Positions 1-27,991 of a stretch of DNA of 27,991 nucleotides are shown piece after piece (positions within the stretch are counted from its first letter, which is position 1; every line of letters starts with the position of its first letter). This DNA is from a virus. The translations under genes and the position numbers were made by a program. The DNA lies in the UHGV virus genome UHGV-0114978. One strand, given 5' to 3'. The notes beneath the pieces are model-generated. The model worked only from the letters and a program-made list of their open reading frames with translations, had not been told where the DNA came from and did not search any database.

Positions 1-2
1 CT

Positions 3-731
3 GGTAGCAACGTTGTACTGCCAGCAGAAGAAGCGGAAGAACTGGCACGAATTGCGCTGGCATCGCTGGAAGCAGAGCCGATAGGTTTCCGTTGCAGGCG
101 CAATGATAACCTTGGTGACTGGAGTTACGTATATCATCGAGAGCCAGATGATTTTGAGCGCAAACATTTAGTGATAGAGGGCATTTACGCCGCCCCTCCA
201 GCGCCAGTAGTACCGGAAGAAAAACCAATTCCTAATCCTCTTAGCATGTACGCGGTTGATGCGGTTGCCGCTATTGCAGAGGTAAGAGGCTGGAACGCCT
301 GCCGCGCTGCCATGCTTCATAGTGCCGAACCTGCAAGTAATCATGAAGAGTTGCCGCTTGATTATCGCCAAGGTCAAAAAGATGGTCTTGAATGGGCTGC
401 GCAGCTTGCAGAAGCAAATCACCCACAAACTGGCGACTGGCTTTACGATGACCCGCTGGAGCTGGCTAAAGCTATCAGAAAAGGTCCTGACATGCCCGAA
501 TTCGATGGACCAACTCCGGTAACTCCGGATGGTTGGATAAGCTGTAGTGAGCGAATGCCGGAAGAAACGGGTGACATTATTGTTGTTTCGGATGGCATTG
601 TAATGTCCGGGATTTCTTATTCTCGTCGTGACGGGTTCTATATAGCCGCATTGGAGTACGACGACGATGAACCAATTGGCGGTGTAACCCACTGGATGCC
701 ACTACCAGAACCGCCGCAGGAGGTGAAGTGA
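3..731 (+). CDS. Ea22-like early protein, 5' truncated at window edge; C-terminal DUF551-like domain
   Basis: Reading frame is open from base 3 with no upstream stop (the track starts at GTG 171). C-terminal block GWISCSERMPEE...HWMPLPEPP looks like the DUF551 domain of lambdoid Ea22-type proteins. Position upstream of xis matches the lambda early-left region. Confidence 0.5.
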   Translation, partial: GSNVVLPAEEAEELARIALASLEAEPIGFRCRRNDNLGDWSYVYHREPDDFERKHLVIEGIYAAPPAPVVPEEKPIPNPLSMYAVDAVAAIAEVRGWNACRAAMLHSAEPASNHEELPLDYRQGQKDGLEWAAQLAEANHPQTGDWLYDDPLELAKAIRKGPDMPEFDGPTPVTPDGWISCSERMPEETGDIIVVSDGIVMSGISYSRRDGFYIAALEYDDDEPIGGVTHWMPLPEPPQEVK

Positions 732-1009
732 TGGACTCCTTCGCGAAATATACGATTATTGACTGGATAGCATTCCTTCAGGTTTTGCTCATCTGGTTTT
801 ATATGGCTTACAGGAGTGGACAGTGGATTGTCAGTGTAGCCTGTAGCAAGGGATGGCGTTGGTGGAACCGAAAGAATAAAAAAGCACTGGCATTGGATTC
901 GTTTTACGAAGCATTCAATCTTAACAGCCTTCAGCCTGGTTCTGTCATTGTAGTCACCACTCAAAGTGGCATGACCATTCAGATTCATAAACCAAAAGAG
1001 GAAAAATGA
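728..1009 (+). CDS. hypothetical early-region protein (93 aa) with one hydrophobic segment
   Basis: ORF start overlaps the upstream stop (ATGA); hydrophobic stretch IIDWIAFLQVLLIWFYMAY; sits in the lambda-like b2/early-left region. Confidence 0.4.
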   Translation: MMDSFAKYTIIDWIAFLQVLLIWFYMAYRSGQWIVSVACSKGWRWWNRKNKKALALDSFYEAFNLNSLQPGSVIVVTTQSGMTIQIHKPKEEK

Positions 1010-1095
1010 TGTGGCCTATATGTGTTAATTGCGGACGGATGTGCCTATCTGGATGGTGCCGAAAGTGCGACAAATGCACGAAGCAAAGACAATAA
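1006..1095 (+). CDS. candidate 29-aa Cys-rich mini-protein (MMWPICVNCGRMCLSGWCRKCDKCTKQRQ)
   Basis: Strong SD AGAGGA 5 nt upstream of ATG 1006; start overlaps the stop of the preceding ORF; 6 Cys in 29 aa in CxxC-like spacing. Too short for the ORF track. Confidence 0.25.
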   Translation: MMWPICVNCGRMCLSGWCRKCDKCTKQRQ

Positions 1096-1166
1096 CAATC
1101 CTCGCACTCGCGGGGATTTCTTTTATCTGAACTCGCTACGGCGGGTTTTGTTTTATGGAGATGATT

Positions 1167-1466
1167 ATGGCTTGTTCAACATTCAACCCTTTAACGTTAC
1201 AGAAATACCATCCAGACCCTGAAGATTTATGCTCACTGTGTGGCGGAAATCATGGTAAAGCCGCCATGATCGAATGTAAGGACAAAATCCACATATGCCT
1301 TAATTGCGTTGATGTCCTCGTTGATATCAAAAATGAAAGAGAAGATAAAAATCGTAGCGAGGCTATTCGCGCCTTAGATTCATGGATGCGAGATGGGTAT
1401 AGTGCTGCGCAAATTTATGACTTAGCCATTTCAAAAGGCGAAATACCAGGTGTGCGAATCGAATAA
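1167..1466 (+). CDS. zinc-ribbon protein (CxxC-x19-CxxC), possibly Ea8.5-like
   Basis: Track ORF 1155..1466; GGAG sits 8 nt before ATG 1167 (MACSTFNPL...). Motifs CSLCGG and CLNC suggest a Zn-binding ribbon. Ea8.5 naming is by position and Zn-binding character only. Confidence 0.5.
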   Translation: MACSTFNPLTLQKYHPDPEDLCSLCGGNHGKAAMIECKDKIHICLNCVDVLVDIKNEREDKNRSEAIRALDSWMRDGYSAAQIYDLAISKGEIPGVRIE

Positions 1467-1486
1467 GAAGCGCACTCAAGCATCTT

Positions 1487-1669
1487 TTGGGGAAATCACA
1501 AATGCACTTCCGAGTCACAGGTGAATGGAATGGAGAGCCATTCAACAGAGTTATCGAATCTGAGAACATCAACGACTGCTACGACCACTGGATGATATGG
1601 GCGCAGATAGCACATGCAGAAGTAACCAATATTCAAATTGAAGAACTGAAAGAACACCAAGCCGCCTGA
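1487..1669 (+). CDS. hypothetical 60-aa protein immediately upstream of xis
   Basis: ORF ends 39 nt before xis, the same spacing I recall for the small ORF upstream of xis in lambda; its stop codon lies inside the terminator hairpin loop. Confidence 0.45.
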   Translation: MGKSQMHFRVTGEWNGEPFNRVIESENINDCYDHWMIWAQIAHAEVTNIQIEELKEHQAA

Positions 1670-1682
1670 TGGCGGTTTTTTC
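1661..1682 (+). terminator. intrinsic terminator-like hairpin GCCGCC-TGAT-GGCGG followed by TTTTTT
   Basis: Perfect GC stem plus T-run read directly from the sequence; lies between the 60-aa ORF and xis. Confidence 0.6.
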
Positions 1683-1708
1683 TTGCGTGTAATTGCGGAG
1701 ACTTTGCG

Positions 1709-1927
1709 ATGTACTTGACACTTCAGGAGTGGAACGCACGCCAGCGACGCCCAAGAAGCCTTGAAACAGTTCGTCGATGGGTGCGCGAATGCAGGATATT
1801 CCCTCCTCCGGTTAAGGATGGAAGAGAGTATCTGTTCCACGAATCAGCGGTAAAGGTTGACTTAAATCGACCAGTAACAGGTAGCCTTTTGAAGAGGATC
1901 AGAAATGGGAAGAAGGCGAAGTCATGA
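1709..1927 (+). CDS. xis: excisionase Xis (lambda-type, 72 aa)
   Basis: Translation MYLTLQEWNARQRRPRSLETVRRWVRECRIFPPPVKDGREYLFHE... matches lambda Xis as I recall it over the full length; 23-nt overlap with int as in lambda. Confidence 0.93.
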   Translation: MYLTLQEWNARQRRPRSLETVRRWVRECRIFPPPVKDGREYLFHESAVKVDLNRPVTGSLLKRIRNGKKAKS

Positions 1928-2975
1928 GCGCCGGGATTTACCCCCTAACCTTTATATAAGAAACAATGGATATTACTGCTACAGGGACCCAAGGACGGGT
2001 AAAGAGTTTGGATTAGGCAGAGACAGGCGAATCGCAATCACTGAAGCCATACAGGCCAACATTGAGTTATTTTCAGGACACAAACACAAGCCTCTGACAG
2101 CGAGAATCAACAGTGATAATTCCGTTACGCTACATTCATGGCTTGATCGCTACGAAAAAATCCTGGCCAGCAGAGGAATCAAGCAGAAGACACTCATAAA
2201 TTACATGAGCAAAATTAAAGCAATAAGGAGGGGGCTGCCTGATGCTCCACTTGAAGACATCACCACAAAAGAAATTGCGGCAATGCTCAATGGATACATA
2301 GACGAGGGCAAGGCGGCGTCAGCCAAGTTAATCAGATCAACACTGAGCGATGCATTCCGAGAGGCAATAGCTGAAGGCCATATAACAACAAACCCTGTCG
2401 CTGCCACTCGCGCAGCAAAATCAGAGGTAAGGAGATCAAGACTTACGGCTGACGAATACCTGAAAATTTATCAAGCAGCAGAATCATCACCATGTTGGCT
2501 CAGACTTGCAATGGAACTGGCTGTTGTTACCGGGCAGCGAGTTGGGGATTTATGCGAAATGAAGTGGTCTGATATCGTAGATGGATATCTTTATGTCGAG
2601 CAAAGCAAAACAGGCGTAAAAATTGCCATCCCTACAACATTGCATGTTGATGCTCTCGGGATATCAATGAAGGAAACACTTGATAAATGCAAAGAGATTC
2701 TTGGCGGAGAAACCATAATTGCATCTACTCGTCGTGAACCGCTTTCATCCGGCACAGTATCAAGGTATTTTATGCGCGCACGAAAAGCATCAGGTCTTTC
2801 CTTCGAAGGGGATCCGCCTACCTTTCACGAGTTGCGCAGTTTGTCTGCAAGACTCTATGAGAAGCAGATAAGCGATAAGTTTGCTCAACATCTTCTCGGG
2901 CATAAGTCGGACACCATGGCATCACAGTATCGTGATGACAGAGGCAGGGAGTGGGACAAAATTGAAATCAAATAA
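1905..2975 (+). CDS. int: tyrosine integrase Int (lambda-type, 356 aa)
   Basis: MGRRRSHERRDLPPNLYIRNNGYYCYRDPRTGKEFGLGRD... is near-identical to lambda Int from memory (I see only a few substitutions). C-terminal catalytic region with HELRSLSARLYE and HLLGHKSDTMASQY (catalytic Tyr) is present. Confidence 0.97.
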   Translation: MGRRRSHERRDLPPNLYIRNNGYYCYRDPRTGKEFGLGRDRRIAITEAIQANIELFSGHKHKPLTARINSDNSVTLHSWLDRYEKILASRGIKQKTLINYMSKIKAIRRGLPDAPLEDITTKEIAAMLNGYIDEGKAASAKLIRSTLSDAFREAIAEGHITTNPVAATRAAKSEVRRSRLTADEYLKIYQAAESSPCWLRLAMELAVVTGQRVGDLCEMKWSDIVDGYLYVEQSKTGVKIAIPTTLHVDALGISMKETLDKCKEILGGETIIASTRREPLSSGTVSRYFMRARKASGLSFEGDPPTFHELRSLSARLYEKQISDKFAQHLLGHKSDTMASQYRDDRGREWDKIEIK

Positions 2976-3210
2976 TGATTTTATTTTGACTGATAGTGAC
3001 CTGTTCGTTGCAACAAATTGATAAGCAATGCTTTTTTATAATGCCAACTTAGTATAAAAAAGCTGAACGTGAAACATTAAAAACCATTAATATCAATGTG
3101 TTACAATATCTTTAGTCTAAAAAATAGACTGCATAATGCTACAAAACACAACATATCCAGTCACTATGAATCAACCACTTAGATGGTATTAGTGACCTGT
3201 AACAGAGCAT
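2976..3210. other. attP attachment site; 15-bp core TTAGTATAAAAAAGC at 3049..3063 (reverse complement of lambda core GCTTTTTTATACTAA), flanked by P' arm (2976-3048) and P arm (3064-~3210)
   Basis: Core is identical to the lambda core. The int-proximal arm carries arm-type sites (ATTTTGACT, CAGGTCACTATCA as reverse complement). The distal arm resembles the lambda P arm with divergence in the middle. Confidence 0.9.
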
Positions 3211-3211
3211 T

Positions 3212-3251
3212 AGCGCAAGGTGATTTTTTTGTCTTCTTGCGCTAATTTTTT
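3212..3251 (+). terminator. tI/sib-like hairpin downstream of int-attP (8-bp stem AGCGCAAG/CTTGCGCT, then AATTTTTT)
   Basis: Inverted repeat and T-run seen in sequence; position beyond attP matches the lambda tI/sib retroregulation locus. A second imperfect 14-bp hairpin lies at 3282..3315. Confidence 0.5.
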
Positions 3252-3351: not shown

Positions 3352-3654
3352 CTACGATGCAAGAATCCATACCAATAAGCATCCGATAATTGGGAAAGAA
3401 AAATCCAATAGACTTCCCACATCCCACACGCGTGGATCAAAACCTCCCCACCACGGCATGTTGATACGTTTCCCTTTCCCAAACTTTTCTATCCAGCGAT
3501 ATTCTGCCTGGGTGTGTTCACGCGCAATGAAGAACGTACAACCGGCTATCGCACCGTAAGCCCAGTTTCCGGTAAAAAGACCAACCAGAACTTGTGCGAC
3601 AACAGCGCAAAGTGCGTGAAGAATTGGTGTTATATCAACTTCTATATTCATCAT
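3352..3654 (-). CDS. hypothetical small membrane protein (100 aa, 2-3 predicted TM segments)
   Basis: Hydrophobic segments (LHALCAVVAQVLVGLFTG, FPIIGCLLVWILAS) flank a basic loop; sits between the tailspike and attP, a position often occupied by lysogenic-conversion or moron genes. Confidence 0.5.
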   Translation of the reverse strand: MMNIEVDITPILHALCAVVAQVLVGLFTGNWAYGAIAGCTFFIAREHTQAEYRWIEKFGKGKRINMPWWGGFDPRVWDVGSLLDFSFPIIGCLLVWILAS

Positions 3655-3730
3655 AAATAACTCATTCGATTTTCACAAATAAGCCGCCAACAAGAAGACG
3701 GCATTAACATTAAAATAATTATATATGATG

Positions 3731-5860
3731 CTATTCCTCAATACCTAACCTGCTTGAAACCTCCGGCATAACAGTAACCTGAAGGGTTTTTGATGAATCT
3801 GTGTTTTTAATTGCTATGCTGATATTGTCAGAAGTGCTGTTATTGTTTGACACTGTTATAGAGTTTGCATCCACCCCGAGTTTCGAATAAGCATCAGCAA
3901 AACTAAGACCAACACTTCCACCAACAACTCTATATGAACCATCAATTCTGAATGACGATATATTGTTATTGCTAACATCTCTAATTAGAACCCATATAGA
4001 AACGCCCCTGAAAACAAGGCTTGCCCCTGATGGTATTTGAAGTGATACAGTTCCTGTGGAACCGGGGGGGATACTGCCAGTATATTTAGTTCCGTGCAGA
4101 TATTTCCCCGGTAGATCTAAATACGAGGTGTCTGGCTGTAATAAATTATGTATATGTCTGCTATCTATGCTTCCAGACAGAACCATAGAATCATTTCCAT
4201 ATTCAATTATCCTTCCACCATCGTTACTTATTGTAAGTAATCCTTTGTTTCCTTTATTGTTTCTAACAGTTATATCAGAAGAATCCAGACGGACAATTGA
4301 TATATTTTTTTCTGTTCCATGACAATAATTTGATGAAATTTCACCTGTAACAAGTGACGTACATAAAATGTCTGAACTTCCATCACTGTCGCCAGTAATA
4401 GTGTTGCAGGAAATTAATGCACCATATACCAGACCTGTCGGAGATTCTCCAAATTGCTCTATAGTAATCCGTTTTGTGGTATTTGCTGATATGGTTATAT
4501 TATGAACATCGTCAGTTTGCGATGTTACTTTGATCCTTGATGAAACGGTATTTCCAGAAATAGTAACATTACTTGTATCATCCACCCATAAATATGACGA
4601 AAACGTATTACCTGATATGACTGAGTTACTCACCATTGAGTTCTCAAGCTCACATGAACCATAGCTATTGTTATGGTCATAATTTCCTATAATCCTTACA
4701 AATCCATTCTGGTTAATGAAGTTGTATGATGTTGCATTTTGTCCGCCATAAGTTGAGTTATGCGATGTTTCAGCATTTGTAACGCCTATATGTTGAAAAT
4801 GACCGGCATTTACAGAATCAGGAGCAACTGATGTACACCCTATTACTTTTGTGTTTTTGACAATTCTTGAATTAGGGTCATTCTCCAAATAATAGTTTTT
4901 TGCAACAAATGCCGTAGAGTAAAAGAAACCTTCAAATCTATTAAATAAAATCTGAATATCGTCATAATCTCTTTGGTCTTCATTTGCATAGCAATAAAAT
5001 GCTCTTGAAGACTCGGAGTAATCCTTGCATTTCTGAACGCCAGATAAAAGTGATCGGATTCTGCTAGATTTTATTCTAAATCCGTTGTGAATTAACGTTG
5101 CATCACCAACTAATGTTATTGGCTTAAACAATTCAACCTTATCAAAAACAAATTCACCACCATAAAATCCAAGTATAGCCCCTTCTGGTACTGCATTAAT
5201 AGCATTTTGAATTGCTACAGTATCATCTGTTATGCCGTCTCCTTTTGCACCAAAATCACGAACACTAATGGTGTCTCTCATCTTATCCTGGAACGTTCGG
5301 TACACAGCCCCAGAACCATACTGAATAAACCAACCAAAACCACCAACAACCCCGGCGATTGCAGCATCGACATAATTACGCATTGAGCGATTATTTACAG
5401 CATCCTGCTCAAGTGATGGATCTGCAAGGTTAGAAATTCTGTTTTGCTTTGCATCGTAATATTTTGCAAGCAGAGAGGGCTTCATCAATGCACGTCTGAA
5501 CCACCCAAAACATTGCTGGATCAGCATCGTCAGGTAGTCAAAGGCATCTTCATGCACTTCGGGGAAAAATTTTCCCTGATTGCGAAGGTCTGTCTCCTGC
5601 ACTACATCAAGCACACGATCTATCGTAATTCGCCATCCAGTAGCAAGCGGAGACAGAAGAACCACAGAACCGCCACTATAAGTGCCCGCCCCAGTTACCG
5701 TATAACCGGTATCCAGGACCAATTCTGTTACGTTCCCGTTCAGGTCAGACACCTGAACAACCAGGTCTGATTTTCTGAAAATTCGAAAAGTATACGGAAA
5801 CGATGTCGTAACGCCGTTACCGGTGTATTCGTTGTGGTCAACTTCGGTTGAGACCGTCAT
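3731..5860 (-). CDS. tailspike / receptor-binding protein with right-handed beta-helix (probable polysaccharide depolymerase)
   Basis: 709 aa. N-terminus (MTVSTEVDHNEYTGNGVTTSFPYTF...) resembles the virion-attachment domain of T7-type tail fibers. Motif DFGAKGDGITDDTVAIQNAI is typical of pectate-lyase-like beta-helix caps. GGAG RBS 8 nt upstream. Markedly AT-rich compared with neighbouring virion genes. Confidence 0.85.
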   Translation of the reverse strand: MTVSTEVDHNEYTGNGVTTSFPYTFRIFRKSDLVVQVSDLNGNVTELVLDTGYTVTGAGTYSGGSVVLLSPLATGWRITIDRVLDVVQETDLRNQGKFFPEVHEDAFDYLTMLIQQCFGWFRRALMKPSLLAKYYDAKQNRISNLADPSLEQDAVNNRSMRNYVDAAIAGVVGGFGWFIQYGSGAVYRTFQDKMRDTISVRDFGAKGDGITDDTVAIQNAINAVPEGAILGFYGGEFVFDKVELFKPITLVGDATLIHNGFRIKSSRIRSLLSGVQKCKDYSESSRAFYCYANEDQRDYDDIQILFNRFEGFFYSTAFVAKNYYLENDPNSRIVKNTKVIGCTSVAPDSVNAGHFQHIGVTNAETSHNSTYGGQNATSYNFINQNGFVRIIGNYDHNNSYGSCELENSMVSNSVISGNTFSSYLWVDDTSNVTISGNTVSSRIKVTSQTDDVHNITISANTTKRITIEQFGESPTGLVYGALISCNTITGDSDGSSDILCTSLVTGEISSNYCHGTEKNISIVRLDSSDITVRNNKGNKGLLTISNDGGRIIEYGNDSMVLSGSIDSRHIHNLLQPDTSYLDLPGKYLHGTKYTGSIPPGSTGTVSLQIPSGASLVFRGVSIWVLIRDVSNNNISSFRIDGSYRVVGGSVGLSFADAYSKLGVDANSITVSNNNSTSDNISIAIKNTDSSKTLQVTVMPEVSSRLGIEE

Positions 5861-9084: not shown

Positions 9085-12000
9085 CTATTTCATCTGCTCT
9101 TCAACTTTATTTAGTAATGGTGATATCGCCCACAGATTCTGAAAAGGTAGCATTTTACGGACAGCGTGGGTTTGCTGGCTGTCAAATTCTCCGTTAAGTA
9201 CACCATTTGCAACCGTCGCGGCATCACCGCCAAGATCAAAGGTAGGACCAAGTAAAGCACCAATAGCATTACGACTCTGAAACCTTGATACCGGAGGCGC
9301 ACCAAACATCGCGCCAAGACCAAACCTACCGCCGCTTATGTTCTCAACGGTATTCAGCGGCTCAGAGAGCCAGCCAAGCATTCCGCCCCGGTCGATCCCC
9401 TCTTTCACAAGGTTATTCCAGCTGTAGTCGATATCGCGACCGCTTAACTTCTGTTTCATCATATAGACCATTGAGCCAAGCGCAATCGTGCCAAGCGCAC
9501 CAAGATAGAATGCAGCATCGCCCTGCTGGATACCAGATACCAGCACCCTGTTATGCTGTGCGAAGATAAACGTTTTGAACTGCGTGATCATCTTCCAGCC
9601 TTCTTTACTAAAAAACAGCGGTGTATCACCTACGCCAGGCGTTACAATCACTGAGTCTACATCTTTCAGCACTGCAGACTGGAAAATCTCTCTAGCGAAA
9701 CGGTCATCCCACAGATGACTATGCCCGGTTAACAGCCCGTCCATATCCTCTCCGTGCTTCCCGAATTGCTCCCCGATTCGGCGCAGAACATCTTCATTGA
9801 TGCCGACCTGTGCCATCTTCCGCATTTCACTTTTGGAGAGCGTGCCACCAGCAGAAACTTGGCGAGCCGCGTCAAGTATCCTCGACTGCACTATCATCCC
9901 AGACCATGATTTAAGTGCGCTGTTCCACTGATTCATCAGCGTCCAGTTACCGAATTTCTGCGTCATCCAGTTCAGACCTCGCTCAGCGGCGCTTCTCCGG
10001 CTATAGGGGTCAGTAAGATCCGCTATAGCCTTTGTACGCGTAGACAGGACATAATCAAGCCCAACTGCCATTTCTCGCAAATCCCTGGTTGCAATTTTTA
10101 CTGAGTCCATATTTTTAAGCATGCTTACCATTGGTCCGAGAGATTTTCTCAGGCCATGCTGCATCATCGGTCGCATCAGATCAGTTGCAGCGGAGACAGT
10201 CATTCCACCAAGCAAACGGAGGAAGTTAATATTCCTAGCAACTCGCCCGGCACGAACAAAGAAACTGCGTGGATCTTGAGGTGCACCGTAAGTACCAAGC
10301 AGTCGATCACGCATAGCCGTAATATCCCTAATATCAGCCTCCCGTTGCTTCTCAAGAACTGCACGTCGTTTAGGTGTTTTAGCCTCTTTTATTAGCCGGG
10401 TATATTCCTCACTAACCTGACGGATTTGCTCCCCCATATCTTTACGGCCAAACTGCGCAGTCAGCTCAATTTCTGGTGCCACCTGCCGGAGATAACTTTC
10501 CATGATGTAGTTAACATCTGATTCAAGAAAATCTTCTATACGCTCATCAGGAATAAGCAGCGTTCTGCTTTTAGTGAAACCAGCCCGACCAACGAGTCTC
10601 TCTGGGATAATATCGGCTGGTACAAGCCCGGAAGGTGCGCCTATTATTTTATTCACGATCTCGTCAGCAGCGTCCTCTGCTTCCTCTCGGGATAGAGGCT
10701 CCATCTGCTTCAGTGCTCGCTCGCGGCTTGCATTCAGCCTTGTGGTTGAATTTGCCCGTTTTTGCAGTCGGCGAAGCTCAGAACGATATTTCCGTGGATT
10801 ATCCAGCAACTCCATATGGCGCTGATAGACAGGAAGCTCACTCTTTGCCTGCGCTATATCATCAAGGAGTGTTTTAAGGTCAGAGCTTTCTTTCATCATT
10901 CTTGCCTGAAGTTTTTCTGATGAAGTCTCGGCCAACTCTTTTTCTATTCTTGTAAGACGCGCCTGTGTGTCAGTCTCCTGAGATATAAGCTTATTTCGTT
11001 TATCCAGTTCTTCCATGAGTAGAATTTTTTTACCAGACCATTTCTCCGCTTCAGCGATTTCACTAGCGAGAGCATCAGCGCGCGGTGCTGATTCCTCTGC
11101 AGTTTTTAGCAATGAATTTATCTTTTCAATTCGCTGACCTGCTTTGTCAGCACCTTTGGCACTAATCCCTTGTATCCAGTTGGCAATTCGCCCTCTGAAT
11201 TCAGTGCGGTCGGAAAGTATCTTATCGAACTTATAAATGCGGGGAAGATAACTCTTCGCCGTCACGACATCGATATCCTCAGGAAGGATCCCCAATTCCT
11301 GCATACGGGCTTTTGTGGTCTCAAAAATGGGGCGGATTCTGGCGGCTGCTTGTGAAACCTCAGGAATATCACTCTGATCACCACGGCGCATAGCCATGCC
11401 AACAGCTTCATTGAAATCAATAAAGTTCATCCTCTTCACGCCGCGGGCGCTGACAGATTTGCTGTACTGCTGGTAAGCATCACGAGTAGCTTCCATCTGC
11501 TTATAAAGCATGGCGTCGTATTGCTTAATCTTAGTCTCGACTGCCGTAAACGTAGCCAACCCCTCATCATTTTTGGCGAAGAAATAGTTATTTTCGGCAA
11601 GCTGCTGGTTAATCTGACGGGAGACAAGAGATGGTGATTGCGCCAAGCGGCCAGCAGGAGTGACACTCAACGTTTTGTTAGCAAGTCCAAGTCCAGCGAG
11701 CTGTTCCTGATCGAGTGTGGTATTGAAAACCTGAGCTGCACCAATGCTTTGAGGAGAATCCATACCTCGCAAATGATTACCTACTGAGTTAACCACTGCC
11801 TCGCGCGCGCTAGGTCCAGCAAGTAGCTGTGCACCAGCACCAAGGATCCCACCAACGAGAGCATCAACAACAACGTTCGATACGCTCTCCATCGGTGAGC
11901 GAGCTTCCTGAGTGGCCTGTAATGCGGCTTCTGATACTCCCCCACCAGCAGCATTCGCCAGGGCAAAACGCCCTGCCGTCTCAGCAATACTTCCTCCACG

Positions 12001-15796: not shown

Positions 15797-16260
15797 TATT
15801 TTCTCTCCATGTGAAATCTGTGGAAATTAAGACCAAGAGCACCATAAGGCGCGGCTTCTTCAAGCCTGAATCCAAGCCAGTGCAGCCATGCTTTGGCAAC
15901 ATGGTTTCGCTCGTCGACGTAGTTTTCCAGGCGCGGATAAACTGCCAGCATCTGCTGCAATACAGGGCGGCAGTGGCGAAGAAATGTCTTCTGATATTTT
16001 TCAATACGGCTGGTTCCTACCAGCCAGGGCGTACCATTGCCACCGATCATTGACGCCGGAGATACGCCAAACATGGTTACCAGTTCTCCGTTCGCAAATC
16101 CTGACCAGGCCATAGTCGCAGTGCGAAGACCAACACGCAGCGCATCTTCGGTAGTCATCAGCGATACCGCATACAGTTCGTCAATATCAGCCTGACGAAC
16201 ATCCGGCAAAATCATCTGAAGATGCTCTTCGGTAGCGGGAACAATTCGAACATCGATCAT
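15796..16260 (-). CDS. small virion-associated protein (gp13-like position, 154 aa)
   Basis: Overlapping start/stop with neighbours inside the structural operon; no recognisable motif. Confidence 0.45.
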   Translation of the reverse strand: MIDVRIVPATEEHLQMILPDVRQADIDELYAVSLMTTEDALRVGLRTATMAWSGFANGELVTMFGVSPASMIGGNGTPWLVGTSRIEKYQKTFLRHCRPVLQQMLAVYPRLENYVDERNHVAKAWLHWLGFRLEEAAPYGALGLNFHRFHMERK

Positions 16261-18731
16261 CAGAATCCCCCAACAGTAAGGCGAGGAATAACGGCAAGAA
16301 CAGACAGCGGCAACGGATCAAGCTGACGGATTTTTACACGTCCGTTTTTGCCCCAGTTACTGTCCAGTTTCACTTCTACTTTTCCGGTAGCATCATCAAC
16401 AGGATCATCGTAGAACTCGAATTCACGCTGTGGATATTCGTACCATTTACCGCCGGGCGTAGTCGCCCAGATGCCGCGACTGGCATTCACAACCAGAGTA
16501 ACGGAGGGGATCACCTGTTTTTTGTCCAGCAGCGTTTCCTGTCCGTTAATGTTGATATCCAGTGTTTCGAATTCAGCAGTTATTGGCAGGCCGATGTGCA
16601 CAACAGCCCCCGGTGATTCCAGCGTGACGGCACCTCCGGAAACCACTTTCTGTGGTTCCACGTTCGCATCAGAGAGAATGTTTACGGTCTGGCCTTCAAG
16701 ATGAGACAGGCCTCCAAATGTCCGGCGTGCCATCTGCCAGTTCGTGGTGGCCACATTCCTGAGGGATGGCGGGACGTTCCTGTTAGCACGAACCACTACA
16801 GCGGTGTTGCTGGTTACAGAAATAATGTCGCAACGTAATTCTTTTGACACTTCATCGCCAGTATCAGGATCAGTTCCGGTATAAGGGAACTGTAGTTGCG
16901 CACCGACATCACTACTGGTGAAGTACGCACCGCCAGAAATACTGATTGTATATTCCGCGCGGTAATCCCATTCGCCAGAACCACCAGTGATGGTCATCGT
17001 TCTGTCAGACGTATTTCTTCCATCATAGCTAAGGCCAGAATCAACAAAGAAAGCATCTTCATCGCTGGTAAATAAACGGCTGGACAGTCGCTCGATGTAT
17101 CTCACTGTTTGCCCGTTAACGGTTCGGTTAACGACGAAATACACCGCATCTTCATTTCCTTCGCTGATACTGCATGTGCTTTCATATTTTCCGGTACTGG
17201 ATTGTGGTGCCCATGCAAAAACCTGCTGATCACGCAAATAGGTCATCACCAGTAATTTACCGTCATCACGAATGCAGAAGGCGCTGGAGTAAGGGACAAT
17301 AGAGAAGCACCAGTCAACAATGCTGTGCTTCTGAAAAAGATGATTGGCAAGGATGGTCAGGTCGTTCCCCTGATAGCCGTCAACATCGAATGAGTAGGCC
17401 AGATCACGGACAACACTGCCTTTCTCCTGGACGAACAGAGCAATATTCGCCACGGCAATTGGTGGGACATTGCTCGAGCCATTTGATCCCTGAGAGCTGA
17501 ATGCAAATGATGATGGGGTTAACACTTTGTTCTGGTCGCCGGTGATGACGTACTCACCTCCGGAAGTCAGTGCCACCAGCGAACCGACATCAATCAGGTG
17601 GCGGATCTCATTAACCTGACGCCCGGCATAGGTGTAGATAATTCTGTCGTCATCCTGCGTAGGATTGCTTTTGCCAAAATCCTTATAATCCCCGGTACGG
17701 CTGGCCCAGATAGTCTGAGGGAACGCAGTCGATGCGGCGAAGTAAAGACGTTGTTGATAATAAACAACAGTGCCAGGATAACCATTAACACTGTTCCAGG
17801 CATATTTAGCCCATTTATAGCTGGCATTATCCTCGCCAACTACCTGCGAAGGGATATAGGAAATCACCTCGGCAGTTGCAGTAGTTCCATTTGCAGCAGT
17901 GATACGGGCAATGCCAAAACCACTGTGCAGATATTCCCACTCAATGCCAGTATCATCATCACCGGATCCGCCCCAGCCATCCCATGATGTGCCTTCTGTA
18001 TGCGAAGGGCGCAAAGTACCTGTTTTGCCTGCTGTAACGGCGCGATAGTAGTTACTGTCTGCACGGCGAATATCGCCAATCGACGTACTCTTACTGGTTT
18101 CCCATACCGGCACTGAATCCACTGCAGGCTGTTCCAGATAGAACAATTTGCCTACCTGCTCCGCGCCAAAAATAGAGGCGCTTGCCGTTAACGTAATTGT
18201 CCCGGTGCTGGCGCTGGCATAAACCGTCACTGACTCGTCAATATTGATATCTTCAAATGGCCCGTTCTTCGTTACCACATCAACCAGTTGCCAGTTGTCA
18301 TGAGCATATCGGCGCAACTCTTTCGGCGGGTATGCCGGGTGAACCAGCGTAAGCACGTCGGCGCTTTGCGTGAATTTAATTCGGAACAGATCGGCTTCAG
18401 TATATGGCGTGGCAATTTCATAAATAACATTGCTGCTGTTCAGCACCAACGCACCATCTTTGATAACGCGCATGTACTGGTGTCCGAACTCCAGAGCATA
18501 AGTCTGAACCGTCGAGAATTGGAACGGGATCAGGCGGCATTTCCGATTTGGGTATTTGGCGGCACCGACAAAACGCGTACCAGGTCGATTCTCAACGCCG
18601 CCATACTGCCGCACGATAAAGTTATCGCACTTGCGCAATGCTACCTGGTACTTCGCCATGTCAATACGCCCGTACAACGACGGTCCAATCTCACCACCGG
18701 CAAAGCTGGGCTGGATCCAACTGATAGCCAT
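16260..18731 (-). CDS. tail tubular protein B-like (nozzle), 823 aa
   Basis: Position after the adaptor-like gene and before the core proteins, as for T7 gp12; N-terminus MAISWIQPSFAGGEIGPSL loosely resembles the gp12 N-terminus (M..ISQSIKNLKGGISQQP); size is comparable. Confidence 0.6.
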   Translation of the reverse strand: MAISWIQPSFAGGEIGPSLYGRIDMAKYQVALRKCDNFIVRQYGGVENRPGTRFVGAAKYPNRKCRLIPFQFSTVQTYALEFGHQYMRVIKDGALVLNSSNVIYEIATPYTEADLFRIKFTQSADVLTLVHPAYPPKELRRYAHDNWQLVDVVTKNGPFEDINIDESVTVYASASTGTITLTASASIFGAEQVGKLFYLEQPAVDSVPVWETSKSTSIGDIRRADSNYYRAVTAGKTGTLRPSHTEGTSWDGWGGSGDDDTGIEWEYLHSGFGIARITAANGTTATAEVISYIPSQVVGEDNASYKWAKYAWNSVNGYPGTVVYYQQRLYFAASTAFPQTIWASRTGDYKDFGKSNPTQDDDRIIYTYAGRQVNEIRHLIDVGSLVALTSGGEYVITGDQNKVLTPSSFAFSSQGSNGSSNVPPIAVANIALFVQEKGSVVRDLAYSFDVDGYQGNDLTILANHLFQKHSIVDWCFSIVPYSSAFCIRDDGKLLVMTYLRDQQVFAWAPQSSTGKYESTCSISEGNEDAVYFVVNRTVNGQTVRYIERLSSRLFTSDEDAFFVDSGLSYDGRNTSDRTMTITGGSGEWDYRAEYTISISGGAYFTSSDVGAQLQFPYTGTDPDTGDEVSKELRCDIISVTSNTAVVVRANRNVPPSLRNVATTNWQMARRTFGGLSHLEGQTVNILSDANVEPQKVVSGGAVTLESPGAVVHIGLPITAEFETLDININGQETLLDKKQVIPSVTLVVNASRGIWATTPGGKWYEYPQREFEFYDDPVDDATGKVEVKLDSNWGKNGRVKIRQLDPLPLSVLAVIPRLTVGGF

Positions 18732-19339
18732 CAGGACAACCTCGCAATGGTAAACTCATCAACCGGTGGCTGTGGTTCCTGTGATTCATTCTGGCTATGC
18801 GAGCCAGCACTAAGAATCACGCGATTGTACATATTGAGGGCAAACGTACCGAGGTCTGCATTCCCAGTCAGCGCCATGTTAATAGCTGCCGCAAGACGCC
18901 AGGCCAACGCCTCCATAAAAATGGCATCAAACATGTTCACATCTGTAACGCGAGAGACATACTTGAGCCATGCCTGAGGCTGGTCTGTGTAGATCAACTT
19001 TCCTGTTCCGTTGGTGTCTGCACCAACTTCGTACTGAACGCGCATTGCTGCTGTTGGATTGCGTACACCAGGAAGCATAATTTCAGTAATGCGCAGACAA
19101 TCTGACGGGTACTGGTACGCATATTCCCAGTCAGGCGGTGGATTGCTCGTATCTGCAAGCGCCACGCGTTTGGTAGCAAAGTTCCAGTCAAAATCAGAAA
19201 GCACAGCATCACGACAGGCCTCAAAGTGCAGCGAACATTCCCCCGCTTCCTTGCTGGCTTCCGTCAGGCTGTTAATGCTGCGGCTGTTGCCAATATTGGA
19301 CAGCGCACGATTACAGATCTCTACTACAGAGGCCATCAC
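18731..19339 (-). CDS. tail tubular protein A-like (adaptor/gatekeeper), 202 aa
   Basis: Size and position equal T7 gp11; N-terminal pattern EICNRALSNIGNSRSINSL resembles the gp11-family start (..VNDILASIGEPPVSTL). Confidence 0.55.
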   Translation of the reverse strand: MMASVVEICNRALSNIGNSRSINSLTEASKEAGECSLHFEACRDAVLSDFDWNFATKRVALADTSNPPPDWEYAYQYPSDCLRITEIMLPGVRNPTAAMRVQYEVGADTNGTGKLIYTDQPQAWLKYVSRVTDVNMFDAIFMEALAWRLAAAINMALTGNADLGTFALNMYNRVILSAGSHSQNESQEPQPPVDEFTIARLS

Positions 19340-20162: not shown

Positions 20163-21155
20163 TTACACCACGCGGGCTTCTGTTTCCAGAAGCGCATCAG
20201 TTTCACGGATTGGTACACCACGGAATGAAGTCCACCACTCGCCTTCAGTCTCTTTTACGCTGATAGCCAGAGATGTTTTCTCCAGAGACTGCAGATCAAG
20301 AGCCTGGCCTACAGTGCGGTTCATGTAGAACACCGGGCGGCCCATGCCACGGTTTGGAATGCGATGTAGTGCTTTAACCATCAACTTCGCAATATTTGCG
20401 GCAGAGGAAGGTTCTGAAAGATTGCTGACATCGATATTTGCAATGCGAACAACATAACGCCAGTCACGCAGAGCAAGTCCGTTGTCCCATTTGTAATGGG
20501 TGCGATAGCCTTCGTACTTGCCGCCATTAGCATCTTCCAGTGTCACCTGGCCTTTATCTTCCATCTGGATGCCAGCCTTCTGCCCTTTCGGGAAGATGCC
20601 ATGCACGGTGTTTTCGCCCCACACCACTAACCAGATTGAGGTGTTATCTGTACCCGTGCCACCAGCATCAATGATGTTCTGAGCATTACCCGCAGACAGG
20701 CTGGAATAGCGGGAGGACAGTCCCATAAACTGCTGAGGGTTAACGCTGGAATCACCATAAAACAGCGTCTGCGCCATCTGCTGATTCATCGCTTCAATAA
20801 ATGCGCGGTCTTCAGACAGGCGGAATTCGGCGGTATTGCCGTTCAGATCAGCCAGTGACTTATCGACTTCAGCATAGGTTTCCAGCATGCCCACGGAATC
20901 GGTTACCTGCACTGTGGTTGATTTGCTTGGCTGTACGCCATAGTTCAGCAAACGCCAGGTAGCTGAAGGTAAACCAGAACGAATGGTGGTTCGGTGTCCG
21001 GTAGGAAGGTTCCCTTCGACAAAAGGCATATCCTGAAGGATCGGGTTAGTTTGACCGAGAAGCTCGATAATCTTATCGACTTTCCCGTTTGGATCGACGC
21101 GCTTACCCCAGTCAGCCAGCGTTAGCGCAGTTAAGCCTTTAACAGCCATTGTCAT
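20163..21155 (-). CDS. major capsid protein (330 aa)
   Basis: Follows the scaffold gene in the canonical portal-scaffold-capsid order; size typical for HK97-fold podovirus capsid proteins. Confidence 0.7.
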   Translation of the reverse strand: MTMAVKGLTALTLADWGKRVDPNGKVDKIIELLGQTNPILQDMPFVEGNLPTGHRTTIRSGLPSATWRLLNYGVQPSKSTTVQVTDSVGMLETYAEVDKSLADLNGNTAEFRLSEDRAFIEAMNQQMAQTLFYGDSSVNPQQFMGLSSRYSSLSAGNAQNIIDAGGTGTDNTSIWLVVWGENTVHGIFPKGQKAGIQMEDKGQVTLEDANGGKYEGYRTHYKWDNGLALRDWRYVVRIANIDVSNLSEPSSAANIAKLMVKALHRIPNRGMGRPVFYMNRTVGQALDLQSLEKTSLAISVKETEGEWWTSFRGVPIRETDALLETEARVV

Positions 21156-21865: not shown

Positions 21866-22158
21866 TCCTGTTCACTGGCCTCTTTGGCCATCTTCAAATA
21901 CTGTTCAGGGCAATGCGCCATAACGCGCTGAAACAGTTCCAGCGCCAGATTGCGTTGCCCCTCATTAAATGCCATTGCCATAGCGTCCATCGGTGAGATG
22001 GCGGAAAACACACGGCCTTTCTCCAGCACCGACCAGACAACGCGACGCCCCTGTTCACTGCTCATGACAAAGCGAATGTCATCAATTTCACGCTGCGCCA
22101 TGTCACGTTGCTTACGGGCGTTTTCTTCTTTCAGTTGATCGTCTTCGTAATCTGTCAT
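21862..22158 (-). CDS. hypothetical head-assembly-associated protein (98 aa)
   Basis: Coupled to portal (upstream) and scaffold (downstream) by 4-nt overlaps; charged, helical. Confidence 0.45.
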   Translation of the reverse strand: MTDYEDDQLKEENARKQRDMAQREIDDIRFVMSSEQGRRVVWSVLEKGRVFSAISPMDAMAMAFNEGQRNLALELFQRVMAHCPEQYLKMAKEASEQE

Positions 22159-23834
22159 TGTGATTGCCCACCCTGACCACTAACTGCATTCGCCATAGCT
22201 GACAACACACTCGGATCCGAAGTTTTAGCTTCGCTTAGCGTCTTGGCCCCCTGTGCCGCCGCCATCCCCATCGCCATCATTTGTTGCTGCTGTTGTTGCT
22301 GTGCCCGTTGCTGGCGAGCCTGCTCAACCTGTTCCTGCGGAACAATGACGGTTGGAGACACTCCGGACATATCAGCGAATGCATCGATCGCCTGATCAAC
22401 GTTGAGTTTGTCGAGAGCTTCTGGTTTCGCTTGCGCAAGTTGACCAATGAAGTTAACCGTGGACGCCAGACTGGACAGGCCGATAGACTTCTGCGCCTGA
22501 GCCATGACGGAAATGTATTCGACCTTCAGGGGCATGCCTTCCATCGCGTCAGGCGGTGGCGGCAGCATGTTTTTACGCACCATCATCGAGAAAGCGCGGT
22601 CAATGAGAGGATTAAGACATTCGTCGTTCAGACGCTCCAGAACCGGCCCCAACATCAGAAGCTTTTCTTCTTTCATTTCGATCACCGCTTCAACAGGCAT
22701 TGAGCGGGTATTGATGTTCTGCAACATCATGAACAGATCGACGAAGTAGGCGCTGTTAATGATTTGACGAGTGTCCTGAATGTCTGCCACCAAATCTGCT
22801 GTACTGGGGTTAACCAGATAAGCAGGCCTGAAGCCATCCTGACCAGTAATCTGATCGATATACGTGATGTCGCCAGGAAGAAGGGAGGCACGCTGATTCT
22901 TGAGGGAAGTCGGAGCAACCATCGGCGGATTGGTGGCTTTATCAATCAACTGCGACTTGCGCTTCTGGAGACGCTGCAATGCCTTAACAGGTCCAAGCGC
23001 CAGCATACCCGGGCATGATGATCCATAAACATCTTCGCCATTAACTTCCCAGCGCGGAGCCATAATTGGAAACTCATCGAATCCGGACTCACGCAACAAC
23101 TTGTCGTTATCGCCACCAACCTCGTAATAAACCGATTTGAATGGCTTGTTCTTGCTATCCAGCTTCGATGTATCGCGGTCAATGTTCGGGTAAACCGAAT
23201 GCATCACTTCGATCCACTTCTCGTAGGTGCCGCTTTCCCACATGCTTTTTACGGATTCGCTGACGTTATTTAGCCCGAACTCCTGAACAAGCTGACGAAC
23301 AGTCATAGAGAACTTGCGAAAACAGGTGTCAACACTGCCACGAGGTGAGTTAGCCAGGTAGTAACTGCCTATCGGGAATGGCATTGTGCGAATGATGTCC
23401 TCGTCATCCTCCAGCACTGCCATTGCACCAGTGCTGTATGTGCCGAGGCTTCCGTATAACTGCGGCAGCGACTGATAGAGATTCGACTTATTGAACATAT
23501 CGTTCATGCGGTTCTGCACCGCCTCAAGCCACAACTTAACAGGGCCATAATCCATCATTTCAGGATCTGGCGTAGCCAGGCGAAACCACGGACGCGCGGG
23601 GCTTGTGATGCCTGACATCATGCCGCTGGCGAGAGTGCGCGCCGCCATAGTCCCGGTCGAATCAATAATACGTGTATTGCGTCGATCGTTACGGTTGACC
23701 TCAGAAGTCAGAAAGCGGGAACCACGCGGGTTGATGTAATCACTCAACTCGCGCCAGTGCGGCTCGAACGACTGACGCTCGCTTTCAAGTTGTGCGAACT
23801 GTTTGTTCAATCGCTCTTTAGTTGTTTCCGCCAT
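22155..23834 (-). CDS. portal protein (T7 gp8-type head-to-tail connector), 559 aa
   Basis: Size and C-terminal Gln/Met/Ala-rich tail (QQRAQQQQQQQMMAMGMAAAQGAKTL...) resemble T7 gp8 as I recall it; GGAG RBS 9 nt before ATG; follows terL. Confidence 0.88.
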   Translation of the reverse strand: MAETTKERLNKQFAQLESERQSFEPHWRELSDYINPRGSRFLTSEVNRNDRRNTRIIDSTGTMAARTLASGMMSGITSPARPWFRLATPDPEMMDYGPVKLWLEAVQNRMNDMFNKSNLYQSLPQLYGSLGTYSTGAMAVLEDDEDIIRTMPFPIGSYYLANSPRGSVDTCFRKFSMTVRQLVQEFGLNNVSESVKSMWESGTYEKWIEVMHSVYPNIDRDTSKLDSKNKPFKSVYYEVGGDNDKLLRESGFDEFPIMAPRWEVNGEDVYGSSCPGMLALGPVKALQRLQKRKSQLIDKATNPPMVAPTSLKNQRASLLPGDITYIDQITGQDGFRPAYLVNPSTADLVADIQDTRQIINSAYFVDLFMMLQNINTRSMPVEAVIEMKEEKLLMLGPVLERLNDECLNPLIDRAFSMMVRKNMLPPPPDAMEGMPLKVEYISVMAQAQKSIGLSSLASTVNFIGQLAQAKPEALDKLNVDQAIDAFADMSGVSPTVIVPQEQVEQARQQRAQQQQQQQMMAMGMAAAQGAKTLSEAKTSDPSVLSAMANAVSGQGGQSQ

Positions 23835-24482: not shown

Positions 24483-24559
24483 GTGGCATTAGCTCAGTTG
24501 GACAGAGCAACCGCCTTCTAAGCGGTTGGTCGCAGGTTCGAATCCTGCATGCCACGCCA
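24483..24559 (+). tRNA. tRNA-Arg, anticodon UCU (reads AGA)
   Basis: Hand-folded cloverleaf: acceptor GTGGCAT/ATGCCAC, U8-A9, D-stem GCTC/GAGC, anticodon stem ACCGC/GCGGT with loop CU-UCU-AA, 5-nt variable loop, T-arm GCAGG-TTCGAAT-CCTGC, discriminator G, encoded CCA. Confidence 0.93.
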
Positions 24560-26351: not shown

Positions 26352-26944
26352 TGATTACCATCCTGACGTTCTTTGAGTCGCTTCCTAGCTGCTGCTATGC
26401 GATCAGCAATTGTCACATTCACATTAACATCCAGACGTTCTTTGAACGCGTTGACATCAACATGCTTACCAATCAGCTCAAGGTTCTTCACCTTGTCAGG
26501 CCATTTAATTTTTTTGAGGATTGTCTCTATCGAATCCTCGTTCATGTTCATGATGGTCGATGACAGATCAAAGCCACTAAGCGTAGTGCGCCAGATTTTC
26601 GGCCACTCGCGGATTGGTTTAAGGCTCCCATCGTCGTTGAGGATATCGATCACGTCCATCTGGTCGATCTCCACCAAGCGCATGAGAACGTAATCAGCAC
26701 TGACGCGCATTCGTTTGTTGCGCTCCTCCATCAACTCGGCAATCCGTTTTTGAATGCGTTCATCGCGCATCATGGCACTGGCTTTAACTGCCGCTGTATT
26801 TGGGGAGAATCCTGCGTTAATCGCTGCCTGAGTCTGGTTTTCAGGCGTTTTGATGTATGACTGGCAATAAGCCTCCTGCATTGCTGTGAGCGGCTTAAAT
26901 TGCGTTGATTTGCGTTTATAGGTTTTAGGTTCAGCAGGCATCAT
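26348..26944 (-). CDS. terminase small subunit (about 198 aa; the track ORF extends to 27022 but the N-terminal 26 codons look non-native)
   Basis: From MMPAEPKTYKRK...QEAYCQSYIKTPENQTQAAINAGFS the sequence resembles small-terminase DNA-binding N-domains; GGTGG SD before ATG 26944; coupled to terL. Confidence 0.72.
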   Translation of the reverse strand: MMPAEPKTYKRKSTQFKPLTAMQEAYCQSYIKTPENQTQAAINAGFSPNTAAVKASAMMRDERIQKRIAELMEERNKRMRVSADYVLMRLVEIDQMDVIDILNDDGSLKPIREWPKIWRTTLSGFDLSSTIMNMNEDSIETILKKIKWPDKVKNLELIGKHVDVNAFKERLDVNVNVTIADRIAAARKRLKERQDGNQ

Positions 26945-27018
26945 AACCACCATGGTAATAGTTACCGTCGTGGTAATAGTACCATAAAAAATAAAGCCGC
27001 CATAGTTGGCGGCAGTAT

Positions 27019-27252
27019 TCAAAGTCCATCAAATTCATCGTAAAAACTCTCGTCAAGATACCCTTCCCATTTACCGCGAATGAAAATTACATCCTCGCCG
27101 CAAGGGTGCTGACTGTCGATAACTATATCCCTCCTGGCGCAACCATACTTATGCATGAGAAATTTAACCTCTTTCGGAAAATTTGCTGAGTTATCTCTCA
27201 TATCTTCAAGGTCGTAGCGTATTTTTGGCATAACACCTTCGTGACATGTCAC
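27019..27252 (-). CDS. hypothetical protein (77 aa) upstream of terS
   Basis: ORF coupled to neighbours by 4-nt overlaps; no recognisable motif. Confidence 0.4.
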   Translation of the reverse strand: MTCHEGVMPKIRYDLEDMRDNSANFPKEVKFLMHKYGCARRDIVIDSQHPCGEDVIFIRGKWEGYLDESFYDEFDGL

Positions 27253-27587
27253 ACTATTAATTTCGTTTCATGCCAGCCTTTGGTCACCCAGCATTGCGAG
27301 TCACCATTACACGGGCATGAATTCACAGGAACTATCTCGCCGCACTTACCGCAACGTTTTCTGCTGATCGATTTTATACGCCCGTGCACGCGAGCATCAT
27401 CCTGGCGGATAAGTAACGCAATATACTCACCAAATTCGTAAGGCACACGCCCGGGGCGACGCGTGGCACAGTTACGCTCCAGCATTTCAATTTCCTGAGC
27501 ATCAAGCACAATTTCCAGCTTACGCACGCCAGATGCAGCTTGTCTGGCTCTCTGAGCGGCTTTGCGCTCTGCTGCTGATTTAGCCAT
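27249..27587 (-). CDS. hypothetical protein (112 aa) with C-terminal Cys cluster (CGKCGEIVPVNSCPCNG)
   Basis: Basic N-terminus with possible ribbon-helix-helix-like segment, C-terminal CxxC...CxC motif; coupled to flanking ORFs. Confidence 0.4.
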   Translation of the reverse strand: MAKSAAERKAAQRARQAASGVRKLEIVLDAQEIEMLERNCATRRPGRVPYEFGEYIALLIRQDDARVHGRIKSISRKRCGKCGEIVPVNSCPCNGDSQCWVTKGWHETKLIV

Positions 27588-27981
27588 TCTGATTTTCCTG
27601 CATCATGAGGAAGACAATCATGGCGGCGCGGAGAGGGTTTTCATCTTGAGTCATATGATATGGGGTACTATCACTGCCAACTTTTCTATGCGCTGCCTTC
27701 CATAATCCATTTTCTGGCGCTGGAATAATGCCAATTCTGTTCTCTACGATAATCGGCTCTGCGTCTGATGGGCTTTTACAGTAATCAACCGTTTTTATTG
27801 CATAACCAGTTTCGTCATCCCACTCAACACCAACGATTGATGTTCCCAACTTTGCGATTTCGCAATCTTCGGGAGCAAATCCACAGCAAATTGCCACTCG
27901 CTTGTTAATTTCAAAATCACTTAACTGTGAATAATCCATTGTCATTTCCTCGCACGATGTCTTAGCCACCGGATATCCCAC
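27580..27981 (-). CDS. hypothetical lambdoid late-region protein (133 aa)
   Basis: ORF with start near the window end; the native start may be an internal Met (MTMDYSQL...). Confidence 0.4.
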   Translation of the reverse strand: MGYPVAKTSCEEMTMDYSQLSDFEINKRVAICCGFAPEDCEIAKLGTSIVGVEWDDETGYAIKTVDYCKSPSDAEPIIVENRIGIIPAPENGLWKAAHRKVGSDSTPYHMTQDENPLRAAMIVFLMMQENQNG

Positions 27982-27991
27982 AGGTGAGCCG

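Follow-up and report, generated by a model that had tools for sequence, protein, structure and literature searches.

A lambda-type integration module next to an epsilon15/phiV10-like virion module in metagenome contig UHGV-0114978: a probable assembly switch within a shared tailspike cassette

Organisation of the contig

The virus genome UHGV-0114978 (27,991 nucleotides, the whole of which is called the window here) carries a lambda-type excisionase gene (xis), integrase gene (int) and phage attachment site (attP), followed by a tailspike gene and the morphogenesis genes of a short-tailed phage (Table 1). The window is an entire metagenome contig (ena:ERZ1755950:NODE_369_length_27991_cov_4.971220), with a SPAdes-style name and about 5x coverage, and all evidence on the junction rests on this single low-coverage short-read assembly (ERZ1755950), an accession for which a literature search found no papers. 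An earlier note, made from the letters of the sequence, had described a mosaic temperate phage. The contig appears instead to string together two ordinary, catalogued phage modules, one for lambda-type integration and one for an epsilon15/phiV10-like short-tailed virion. They meet inside a stretch that is common to P22-like phages and the genus Uetakevirus. The join probably reflects a switch made during assembly; if real, it would be no more than a routine recombinant.

Comparison of the window with itself found no terminal overlap, no self-matches and no internal repeats, which rules out a circular or repeat-bearing contig. Both contig ends lie inside genes common to the P22-like and Uetakevirus lineages (DUF551/Ea on the left, NinX on the right), and the remaining ~12 kb of phage genome is outside the window. 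No host sequence was found anywhere in the contig.

Table 1. Features of the window, with coordinates, strand and the evidence for each assignment
Feature	Coordinates	Strand	Evidence
Ea-type early-left gene, DUF551	1..731	+	Pfam PF04448; 242-residue product, truncated by contig end
DUF4752 small protein, lambdoid early-left region	728..1009	+	Pfam PF15944, E = 2.5e-36
Excisionase Xis	1709..1927	+	71/72 identical to lambda Xis; Pfam PF07825
Lambda-type tyrosine integrase Int	1905..2975	+	353/356 identical to lambda Int; PF09003 (arm-binding) and PF00589
Complete attP: P'3, P'2, P'1, H', C-O-C', H2, X1/X2, P2, H1, P1	2972..3199	-	Lambda alignment and motif coordinates: P'3-P'1 2972-3003; H' 3011-3023; core 3049-3063; H2 3091-3103; X1/X2 region ~3143-3156; P2 3158-3167; H1 3169-3181; P1 3188-3199
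tI/sib-type hairpin and U-run, downstream of int across attP	3209..3246	+	Fold -25.3 kcal/mol, z = -5.5; colinear with lambda
100-residue protein	3352..3654	-	phrog_1443, without Pfam family; hydrophobic by eye
Segment common to both lineages, holding the switch point	3400..5270		98.5-99.4% identity
Tailspike	3731..5860	-	phrog_13893, phrog_1171; PF12708
isrK-like Hfq-binding RNA	6396-6471	+	Rfam RF01394, 77.9 bits
C4 antisense RNA	6496-6581	+	Rfam RF01695, 77.7 bits
Bro-N antirepressor gene	6629-7324	+	PF02498
1129-residue internal virion (ejection) protein, T7 gp16 position	9085..12474	-	phrog_342, phrog_16310
915-residue internal virion (ejection) protein with peptidoglycan-hydrolase domain (residues 247-399)	12474..15221	-	phrog_1044; PDB 9vvp, 7q47 (endolysin-like)
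gp14-like internal virion protein	15221..15796	-	Pfam PF24072 (T7_gp14), 33.7 bits, cutoff 27; phrog_418
154-residue internal virion protein, T7 gp13 position	15796..16260	-	phrog_308; PF11090 at E = 0.09 only (below cutoff)
Tail nozzle (tail tubular B analogue)	16260..18731	-	PDB 8ck1 'Tail Nozzle', 6e-218; phrog_376
Head-to-tail adaptor (tail tubular A analogue)	18731..19339	-	PDB 8ck1 'Connector Protein', 4e-26; phrog_394
Gp10-like capsid protein	19336-19665	-	PF21628
Bbp16-like protein with in-frame 380-bp deletion at 19733/19734	19710-20111	-	PF21190
Major capsid protein, epsilon15 gp7 / BPP-1 type	20163..21155	-	PF20911, E = 2e-149; PDB 3j4u, 3j40
Scaffold-like protein	21164-21865	-	phrog_458
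Bbp19-like protein	21862-22158	-	PF25181; phrog_528
Portal protein	22155..23834	-	PF12236, E = 1e-187; PDB 8ck0
tRNA-Arg(UCU)	24483..24559	+	ARAGORN; Rfam tRNA, 73.3 bits
Terminase large subunit	24876-26351	-	phrog_2
Terminase small subunit	26348-27022	-	phrog_51; PF03592
Three small genes upstream of terminase, the last being NinX at the contig end	27019..27981	-	PF10765

The integration module and attP

Xis and Int are near-identical to those of lambda, as had been noted earlier (99% identity for each), and the xis reading frame overlaps the start of int (1905-1927). The Int substitutions fall at residues 164, 245 and 248, away from the catalytic residues of lambda Int. This exact Int allele, which occurred in 25,569 index blocks and adjoined ybhC in 10 of the 10 contexts listed, is very common among Escherichia coli prophages beside ybhC. 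Further left, the DUF4752 gene is 98.7% identical to that of a free P22-like phage contig (L185), and genes related to the DUF551 gene occur in the early-left operons of lambdoid phages as well as in the early-right operons of Uetakevirus. The window is not lambda to the left of 1092 or to the right of 3319.

The 15-bp core (GCTTTTTTATACTAA) occurs once in the window, on the minus strand, with 0 occurrences expected by chance, and every site of a lambda-type attP could be placed around it. The identity with lambda that had been noted earlier for the core holds, and the P' arm is 100% identical as well. The P arm is colinear with lambda as far as lambda position 27471 (window 3319), and P1, P2, H1, X1/X2 and tI/sib are conserved, but the stretch from the core to P2 contains a cluster of about 20 substitutions around H2. 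The consensus for integration host factor (IHF) is retained, the substitutions in H1 and H2 being confined to positions that preserve WATCAANNNNTTR. Integrated P22-like prophages carry this P-arm variant at their attR (locus L091 shows only 2 mismatches over 3045-3408), and the same Int allele and P-arm variant occur at attL and attR of prophages lying between ybhC and ybhB-bioA. Because it is present at attR of integrated prophages, the variant appears to be a natural, working one. The hairpin at 3209-3246 probably corresponds to the tI/sib of lambda.

An attL or attR is ruled out, as lambda-type arms lie on both sides of the core with phage DNA beyond each. On the right, where the earlier note had reserved the possibility of bacterial DNA, the comparison again found phage DNA. 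Since phage DNA flanks both arms, the site reads as an intact attP in non-integrated DNA, as first proposed.

A tailspike cassette shared by two lineages holds the switch point

Homology to Uetakevirus begins within the gene for the 100-residue protein, at 3400. From there to 27039 (84% of the window) the contig is colinear with Uetakevirus phages and prophages at 97-100% nucleotide identity (phiV10, EC.W1-9, phiv142-3 and the prophage of E. coli SCZE5), while window 1-3400 is unrelated to members of this genus. A second match approaches from the other side: 3045-5270, spanning the P arm, the 100-residue gene and ~513 C-terminal residues of the tailspike, is 98.5-99.0% identical to P22-like prophages at bioA-ybhB (E. 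coli VTB96816v, GCA_964302735). Beyond 5270 these prophages, which occupy the lambda attachment site (attB-lambda), diverge into a P22 head-binding N-terminus and P22-type virion genes. Uetakevirus prophages match the segment held in common, from 3400, at 99.3-99.4%.

The tailspike itself consists of a Uetakevirus-type N-terminal attachment domain (~5271-5860) and a pectate-lyase-fold receptor-binding domain (3731-5270). Its N-terminus matches the tail fibres of PDB 8ck1 at 1e-33. The T7-type N-terminal adaptor assigned to it earlier could not be upheld, as PF03906 stayed below threshold (E = 8e-4, 19.5 bits against a cutoff of 25.2). In an exact-protein look-up the complete tailspike was found in this contig only. 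In P22-like and Uetakevirus phages alike, the 100-residue gene lies downstream of the tailspike gene; its exact product was present in 113 index blocks, and all ten contexts listed were P22-like prophages. The 100-residue gene and the receptor-binding domain travel as one cassette, in which the last ~16 codons of the 100-residue gene are lineage-specific.

The alleles are P22-like to the left of 3434 and identical to the SCZE5 Uetakevirus prophage from 4764. Between 3434 and 4763 both kinds of relative differ from the window by ~0.8% (the SCZE5 prophage has 11 mismatches there), and positions 4127, 4136, 4196, 4289 and 4763 differ from nearly every relative compared. No complete genome exceeded 99.4% identity over the receptor-binding domain, and single-nucleotide polymorphisms assign the parent only in part. 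The left part, to ~4763, resembles P22-like prophages that use lambda Int at attB-lambda. Taken together, the alleles point to a single switch, located between 3434 and ~4853, within the shared cassette.

Missing lysis genes and the search for a second example

In the Uetakevirus relatives EC.W1-9, phiv142-3 and SCZE5 the tailspike and the 100-residue gene are followed by a four-gene lysis cassette, attP and a 416-residue integrase. In the window the 100-residue gene is followed by the lambda attP-int-xis in place of the lysis cassette and the 416-residue integrase, and protein-family scans of the window proteins found no holin, endolysin or spanin genes. Among 80 IMG/VR Uetakevirus loci, all of those with enough downstream flank had the lysis cassette after the tailspike except L031. 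Simple double crossovers fitting both contig ends (NinX, DUF1382, Ea22, DUF551) would not restore the lysis genes. The free attP form implies active phage growth, yet the window lacks genes for lysis.

No second example of the join was found. We screened 5,426 complete E. coli genomes with a synthetic query consisting of bioA-ybhB and the Uetakevirus N-terminus, and in none did a Uetakevirus tailspike N-terminus lie within ~3 kb of bioA-ybhB; ~550 other places in those genomes carry this N-terminus away from attB-lambda. None of 50,697 phage records spanned the junction, and looking for the exact junction pattern among viral contigs and genome contigs gave no match. Lambda int was absent from all 80 IMG/VR Uetakevirus loci, and Uetakevirus genes lay beside a lambda P arm in 0 of 40 IMG/VR viral loci and 0 of 37 metagenome loci. 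Overall, the two modules were joined in none of the 157 viral or metagenome loci that were fetched. A free P22-like phage with an intact lambda attP does occur in metagenomes (L185).

Other joins between these lineages were seen. In the metagenome contig L031 (IMGVR_UViG_3300039322_000270, 5548-10142) Uetakevirus virion genes switch to a P22-like segment across the shared receptor-binding domain. Its P22-like part holds the receptor-binding domain, an O-acetyltransferase, a thrW-type attP and a P4-like integrase, with no adjacent lysis cassette; the attP contains the 3' 46 nucleotides of thrW. No complete E. coli genome spans this junction. Two draft contigs, L141 (GCA_036246645.1 BLCM01000054.1) and L142 (GCA_907166365.1 CAJRFG010000027.1), run from a P22-like/lambdoid PL operon (N, cIII, kil, erf or abc2, Ea22, DUF551) through Ea22/DUF551 into Uetakevirus NinX and terminase. 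Complete E. coli genomes lack this junction too, an absence that points to misjoins where the lineages share Ea22/DUF551. All hybrids between P22-like and Uetakevirus phages thus came from short-read metagenome assemblies or draft assemblies; hundreds of finished prophages yielded none.

The virion module

The virion genes are podoviral rather than of the lambda siphovirus kind, as the earlier note had concluded, and encode epsilon15-type proteins. Their order is portal, scaffold-like protein, capsid, adaptor, nozzle, three to four internal proteins and tailspike. In megablast searches EC.W1-9 was 97.8% identical over 81% of query 1-24000, with phiv142-3, phiV10 and TL-2011b similar, and epsilon15 was ~75% identical over part of the virion region. 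Over 4764-14990 the window and the prophage of the completely sequenced E. coli SCZE5 show 100% identity, interrupted once by a 10-nucleotide indel at window 9074, in the short intergenic gap between a 273-residue gene and the gene for the 1129-residue ejection protein. The order of the small genes upstream of terminase also matches the Uetakevirus relatives.

One difference within this module is confined to the contig. A 380-bp deletion at 19733/19734 removes a 111-residue gene and fuses the first 125 residues of the Bbp16-like protein in frame to the last 8 residues encoded by that gene; the segment is kept in 13 of 13 relatives, and no long repeat flanks the deletion. It could be a natural variant, the mark of a defective copy or an assembly error.

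The isrK-like and C4 RNAs lie directly upstream of the Bro-N gene, in the Uetakevirus moron region that separates the tailspike gene from those of the ejection proteins; this layout of isrK-like RNA, C4 RNA and antirepressor resembles the immI arrangement of the P1/P7 type. Both ARAGORN and Rfam place the tRNA-Arg(UCU) on the plus strand, opposite to the late genes, whereas the deposited annotation of phiv142-3 (L004, 23993-24069) places it on the other strand.

Relationship to known phages

Uetakevirus members (phiV10, EC.W1-9, phiv142-3, vB_EcoP_ZX5, TL-2011b and the SCZE5 prophage, with epsilon15 more distant) have the same virion set: portal, gp7-type capsid, Gp10-like, Bbp16-like and Bbp19-like proteins, adaptor, nozzle, ejection proteins, tailspike N-terminal domain, terminase and tRNA-Arg. 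The epsilon15-like phages that had been named for comparison proved to be the correct family, at 97-100% identity to Uetakevirus members. The genus criterion of the International Committee on Taxonomy of Viruses is ~70% genome nucleotide similarity. Apart from the 380-bp deletion, found in the window only, the difference lies in integration and lysis: the relatives carry their own attP, 416-residue integrase and four-gene lysis cassette, and the window has the lambda xis-int-attP.

P22-like (Lederbergvirus-type) phages with lambda Int have the layout of ea genes, xis, int, attP, 100-residue gene and tailspike that is seen in the window. Escherichia phage JEP4, one of these, is ~97% identical to window 515-3638 (93% over 3280-3638). 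They differ in having the P22 head-binding tailspike N-terminus (PF09008), which is absent from the window, and P22-type ejection and virion genes.

The T7-like virion module of the earlier description stood as to gene order only. The order matches T7 genes 8-17 (portal, scaffold, capsid, adaptor, nozzle, proteins in the gp13, gp14, gp15 and gp16 positions, tail fibre), and the portal (PF12236) and gp14-like protein (PF24072) are the only two of these similarities to reach Pfam thresholds. The sequences, however, are epsilon15/phiV10-like. There was no significant pairwise similarity to the T7 virion proteins compared, gp8-gp19 (BLASTP E >= 0.01; no phmmer match), and the 1129-residue ejection protein had no match in the PDB or to T7. 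This direct comparison with T7 proteins rejects a true T7 relationship. The window also differs from T7 in that its capsid belongs to the epsilon15 gp7 family, its terminase genes are upstream rather than downstream, and the setting is temperate (int, xis, attP and an antirepressor region). The hydrolase domain lies in the protein at the gp15 position, whereas in T7 it lies in gp16 (annotated in the record as 'internal virion protein with endolysin domain'). The large open reading frames of the 28-kb window are all assigned, leaving none for a T7-type RNA polymerase; no targeted search for one was made, and the early region lies outside the window. The window is neither a T7-like phage, nor a typical Uetakevirus in its int/lysis layout, nor P22-like in its virion type.

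Origin of the join

Both modules are already known at 97-100% identity, and temperate enterobacterial phages are well known to exchange integration and tailspike modules; the sole unprecedented element would be their adjacency. We favour an assembly switch between two phages co-occurring in one sample, with a probability of about 0.6, because hybrids of this kind were seen only in short-read or draft assemblies and because the lysis genes are missing. Module A (1 to ~3434-4763) comes from a P22-like or lambdoid phage in non-integrated form and covers the distal part of its early-left region, with ea genes, xis, int, lambda attP and tI/sib, the 100-residue gene and the 3' part of the tailspike gene that encodes the receptor-binding domain. 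Module B (~4764 to 27991) is a Uetakevirus morphogenesis block, from terminase through a tailspike with the genus-specific N-terminal domain, and the contig passes from one lineage to the other inside 3400-5270. By analogy with lambda, Int acting with IHF, Xis and Fis on the arm and core sites would be expected to carry out recombination between the 15-bp core and attB, located between ybhC and ybhB-bioA, and sib/tI would restrain the expression of int from PL in non-integrated DNA only. To judge by protein families, the Uetakevirus block would build an epsilon15-type T=7 capsid, a portal-adaptor-nozzle tail and ejection proteins that include one cell-wall hydrolase. On the same basis, the tailspikes would attach by the genus-specific N-terminal domain and recognise O-antigen by the pectate-lyase-fold domain.

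Several points weigh against an assembly switch. The artefact has been inferred, not demonstrated from reads. The alleles change in one clean switch with no random alternation, and a real single crossover would give the same pattern. A de Bruijn assembler given evenly covered parents would be expected to break at a shared stretch of 1.9 kb, and this assembly did break at shorter shared genes at both ends. A stretch of this length at 99% identity is also an excellent substrate for homologous recombination, and the unseen ~12 kb of the genome could hold lysis genes.

The main alternative, which we rate as a serious but clearly lesser possibility, is a genuine recombinant in which a lambda-type ea-xis-int-attP segment, derived from a P22-like or lambdoid phage, took the place of the Uetakevirus int-attP-lysis segment. 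It needs one crossover in the 100-residue gene or receptor-binding domain and a second in one of the early genes common to both lineages, such as DUF1382, Ea22 or DUF551, which would allow it. The contig is continuous through the single allele switch in the 1.9-kb, 99%-identical stretch; attP, Int, Xis and tI/sib are all intact, and the P-arm variant works in nature, being found at attR of integrated prophages. A predicted genome of ~39-40 kb would fit the capsid. Podovirus lineages are also known to acquire tailspike modules from one another. Such a recombinant would, however, be a singleton, without counterpart in the 5,426 complete E. coli genomes, the 50,697 phage records or the 157 fetched loci, and would carry the unique 380-bp deletion in its capsid-accessory genes. 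It would also have lost the sole Uetakevirus lysis cassette, yet its DNA is mostly in the free attP form that implies active growth. A propagating hybrid genome is accordingly less likely than an assembly switch, and we think it unlikely that a propagating Uetakevirus lineage has swapped its integrase, attP and lysis genes for the lambda segment, with lysis genes relocated or another means of leaving the cell. In such a lineage recombination would have run through the shared cassette (100-residue gene and receptor-binding domain) on one side and through an early gene common to both lineages on the other, and attB-lambda would be the target. Found in one low-coverage assembly and nowhere else, with its junction in the 1.9-kb shared stretch and its lysis cassette lost, the contig does not bear out the mosaic temperate phage of the earlier note.

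Two further explanations carry little weight. The contig might represent a real molecule but not a lineage, namely a hybrid concatemer or cointegrate that arose through one crossover during mixed infection or co-induction of a P22-like and a Uetakevirus phage in one host, and that was then sequenced as replicating or packaged DNA. Such an origin would account for an intact attP on a genome that is non-viable alone, and the parent types, which share the receptor-binding domain, probably have the same hosts. A molecule of this kind should nevertheless be a minority beside both parents, which the assembler consensus would not normally follow, and it is indistinguishable from an assembly switch without reads; we consider it very improbable. 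Tandem lambda lysogens regenerate attP between the copies, so that an attP could also come from chromosomal DNA between tandem integrated prophages rather than from free phage. This still requires a hybrid prophage at attB-lambda, which was seen in none of the complete genomes, and the contig has no host sequence, so that we give it hardly any credence.

Whichever way the join arose, the receptor-binding domain of the tailspike and the small gene next to it are near-identical in two podovirus genera. Because it is so nearly identical in both, the shared cassette offers recombination a natural linker and is equally apt to mislead short-read assemblers. Metagenome 'mosaic' phages with junctions in shared cassettes therefore need read-level support before they are counted as lineages. 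If the recombinant were real, it would integrate at attB-lambda and build epsilon15-type virions, and it would be a modest example of an epsilon15-like phage redirected to attB-lambda by a swap of its integration module in which the lysis genes were lost.

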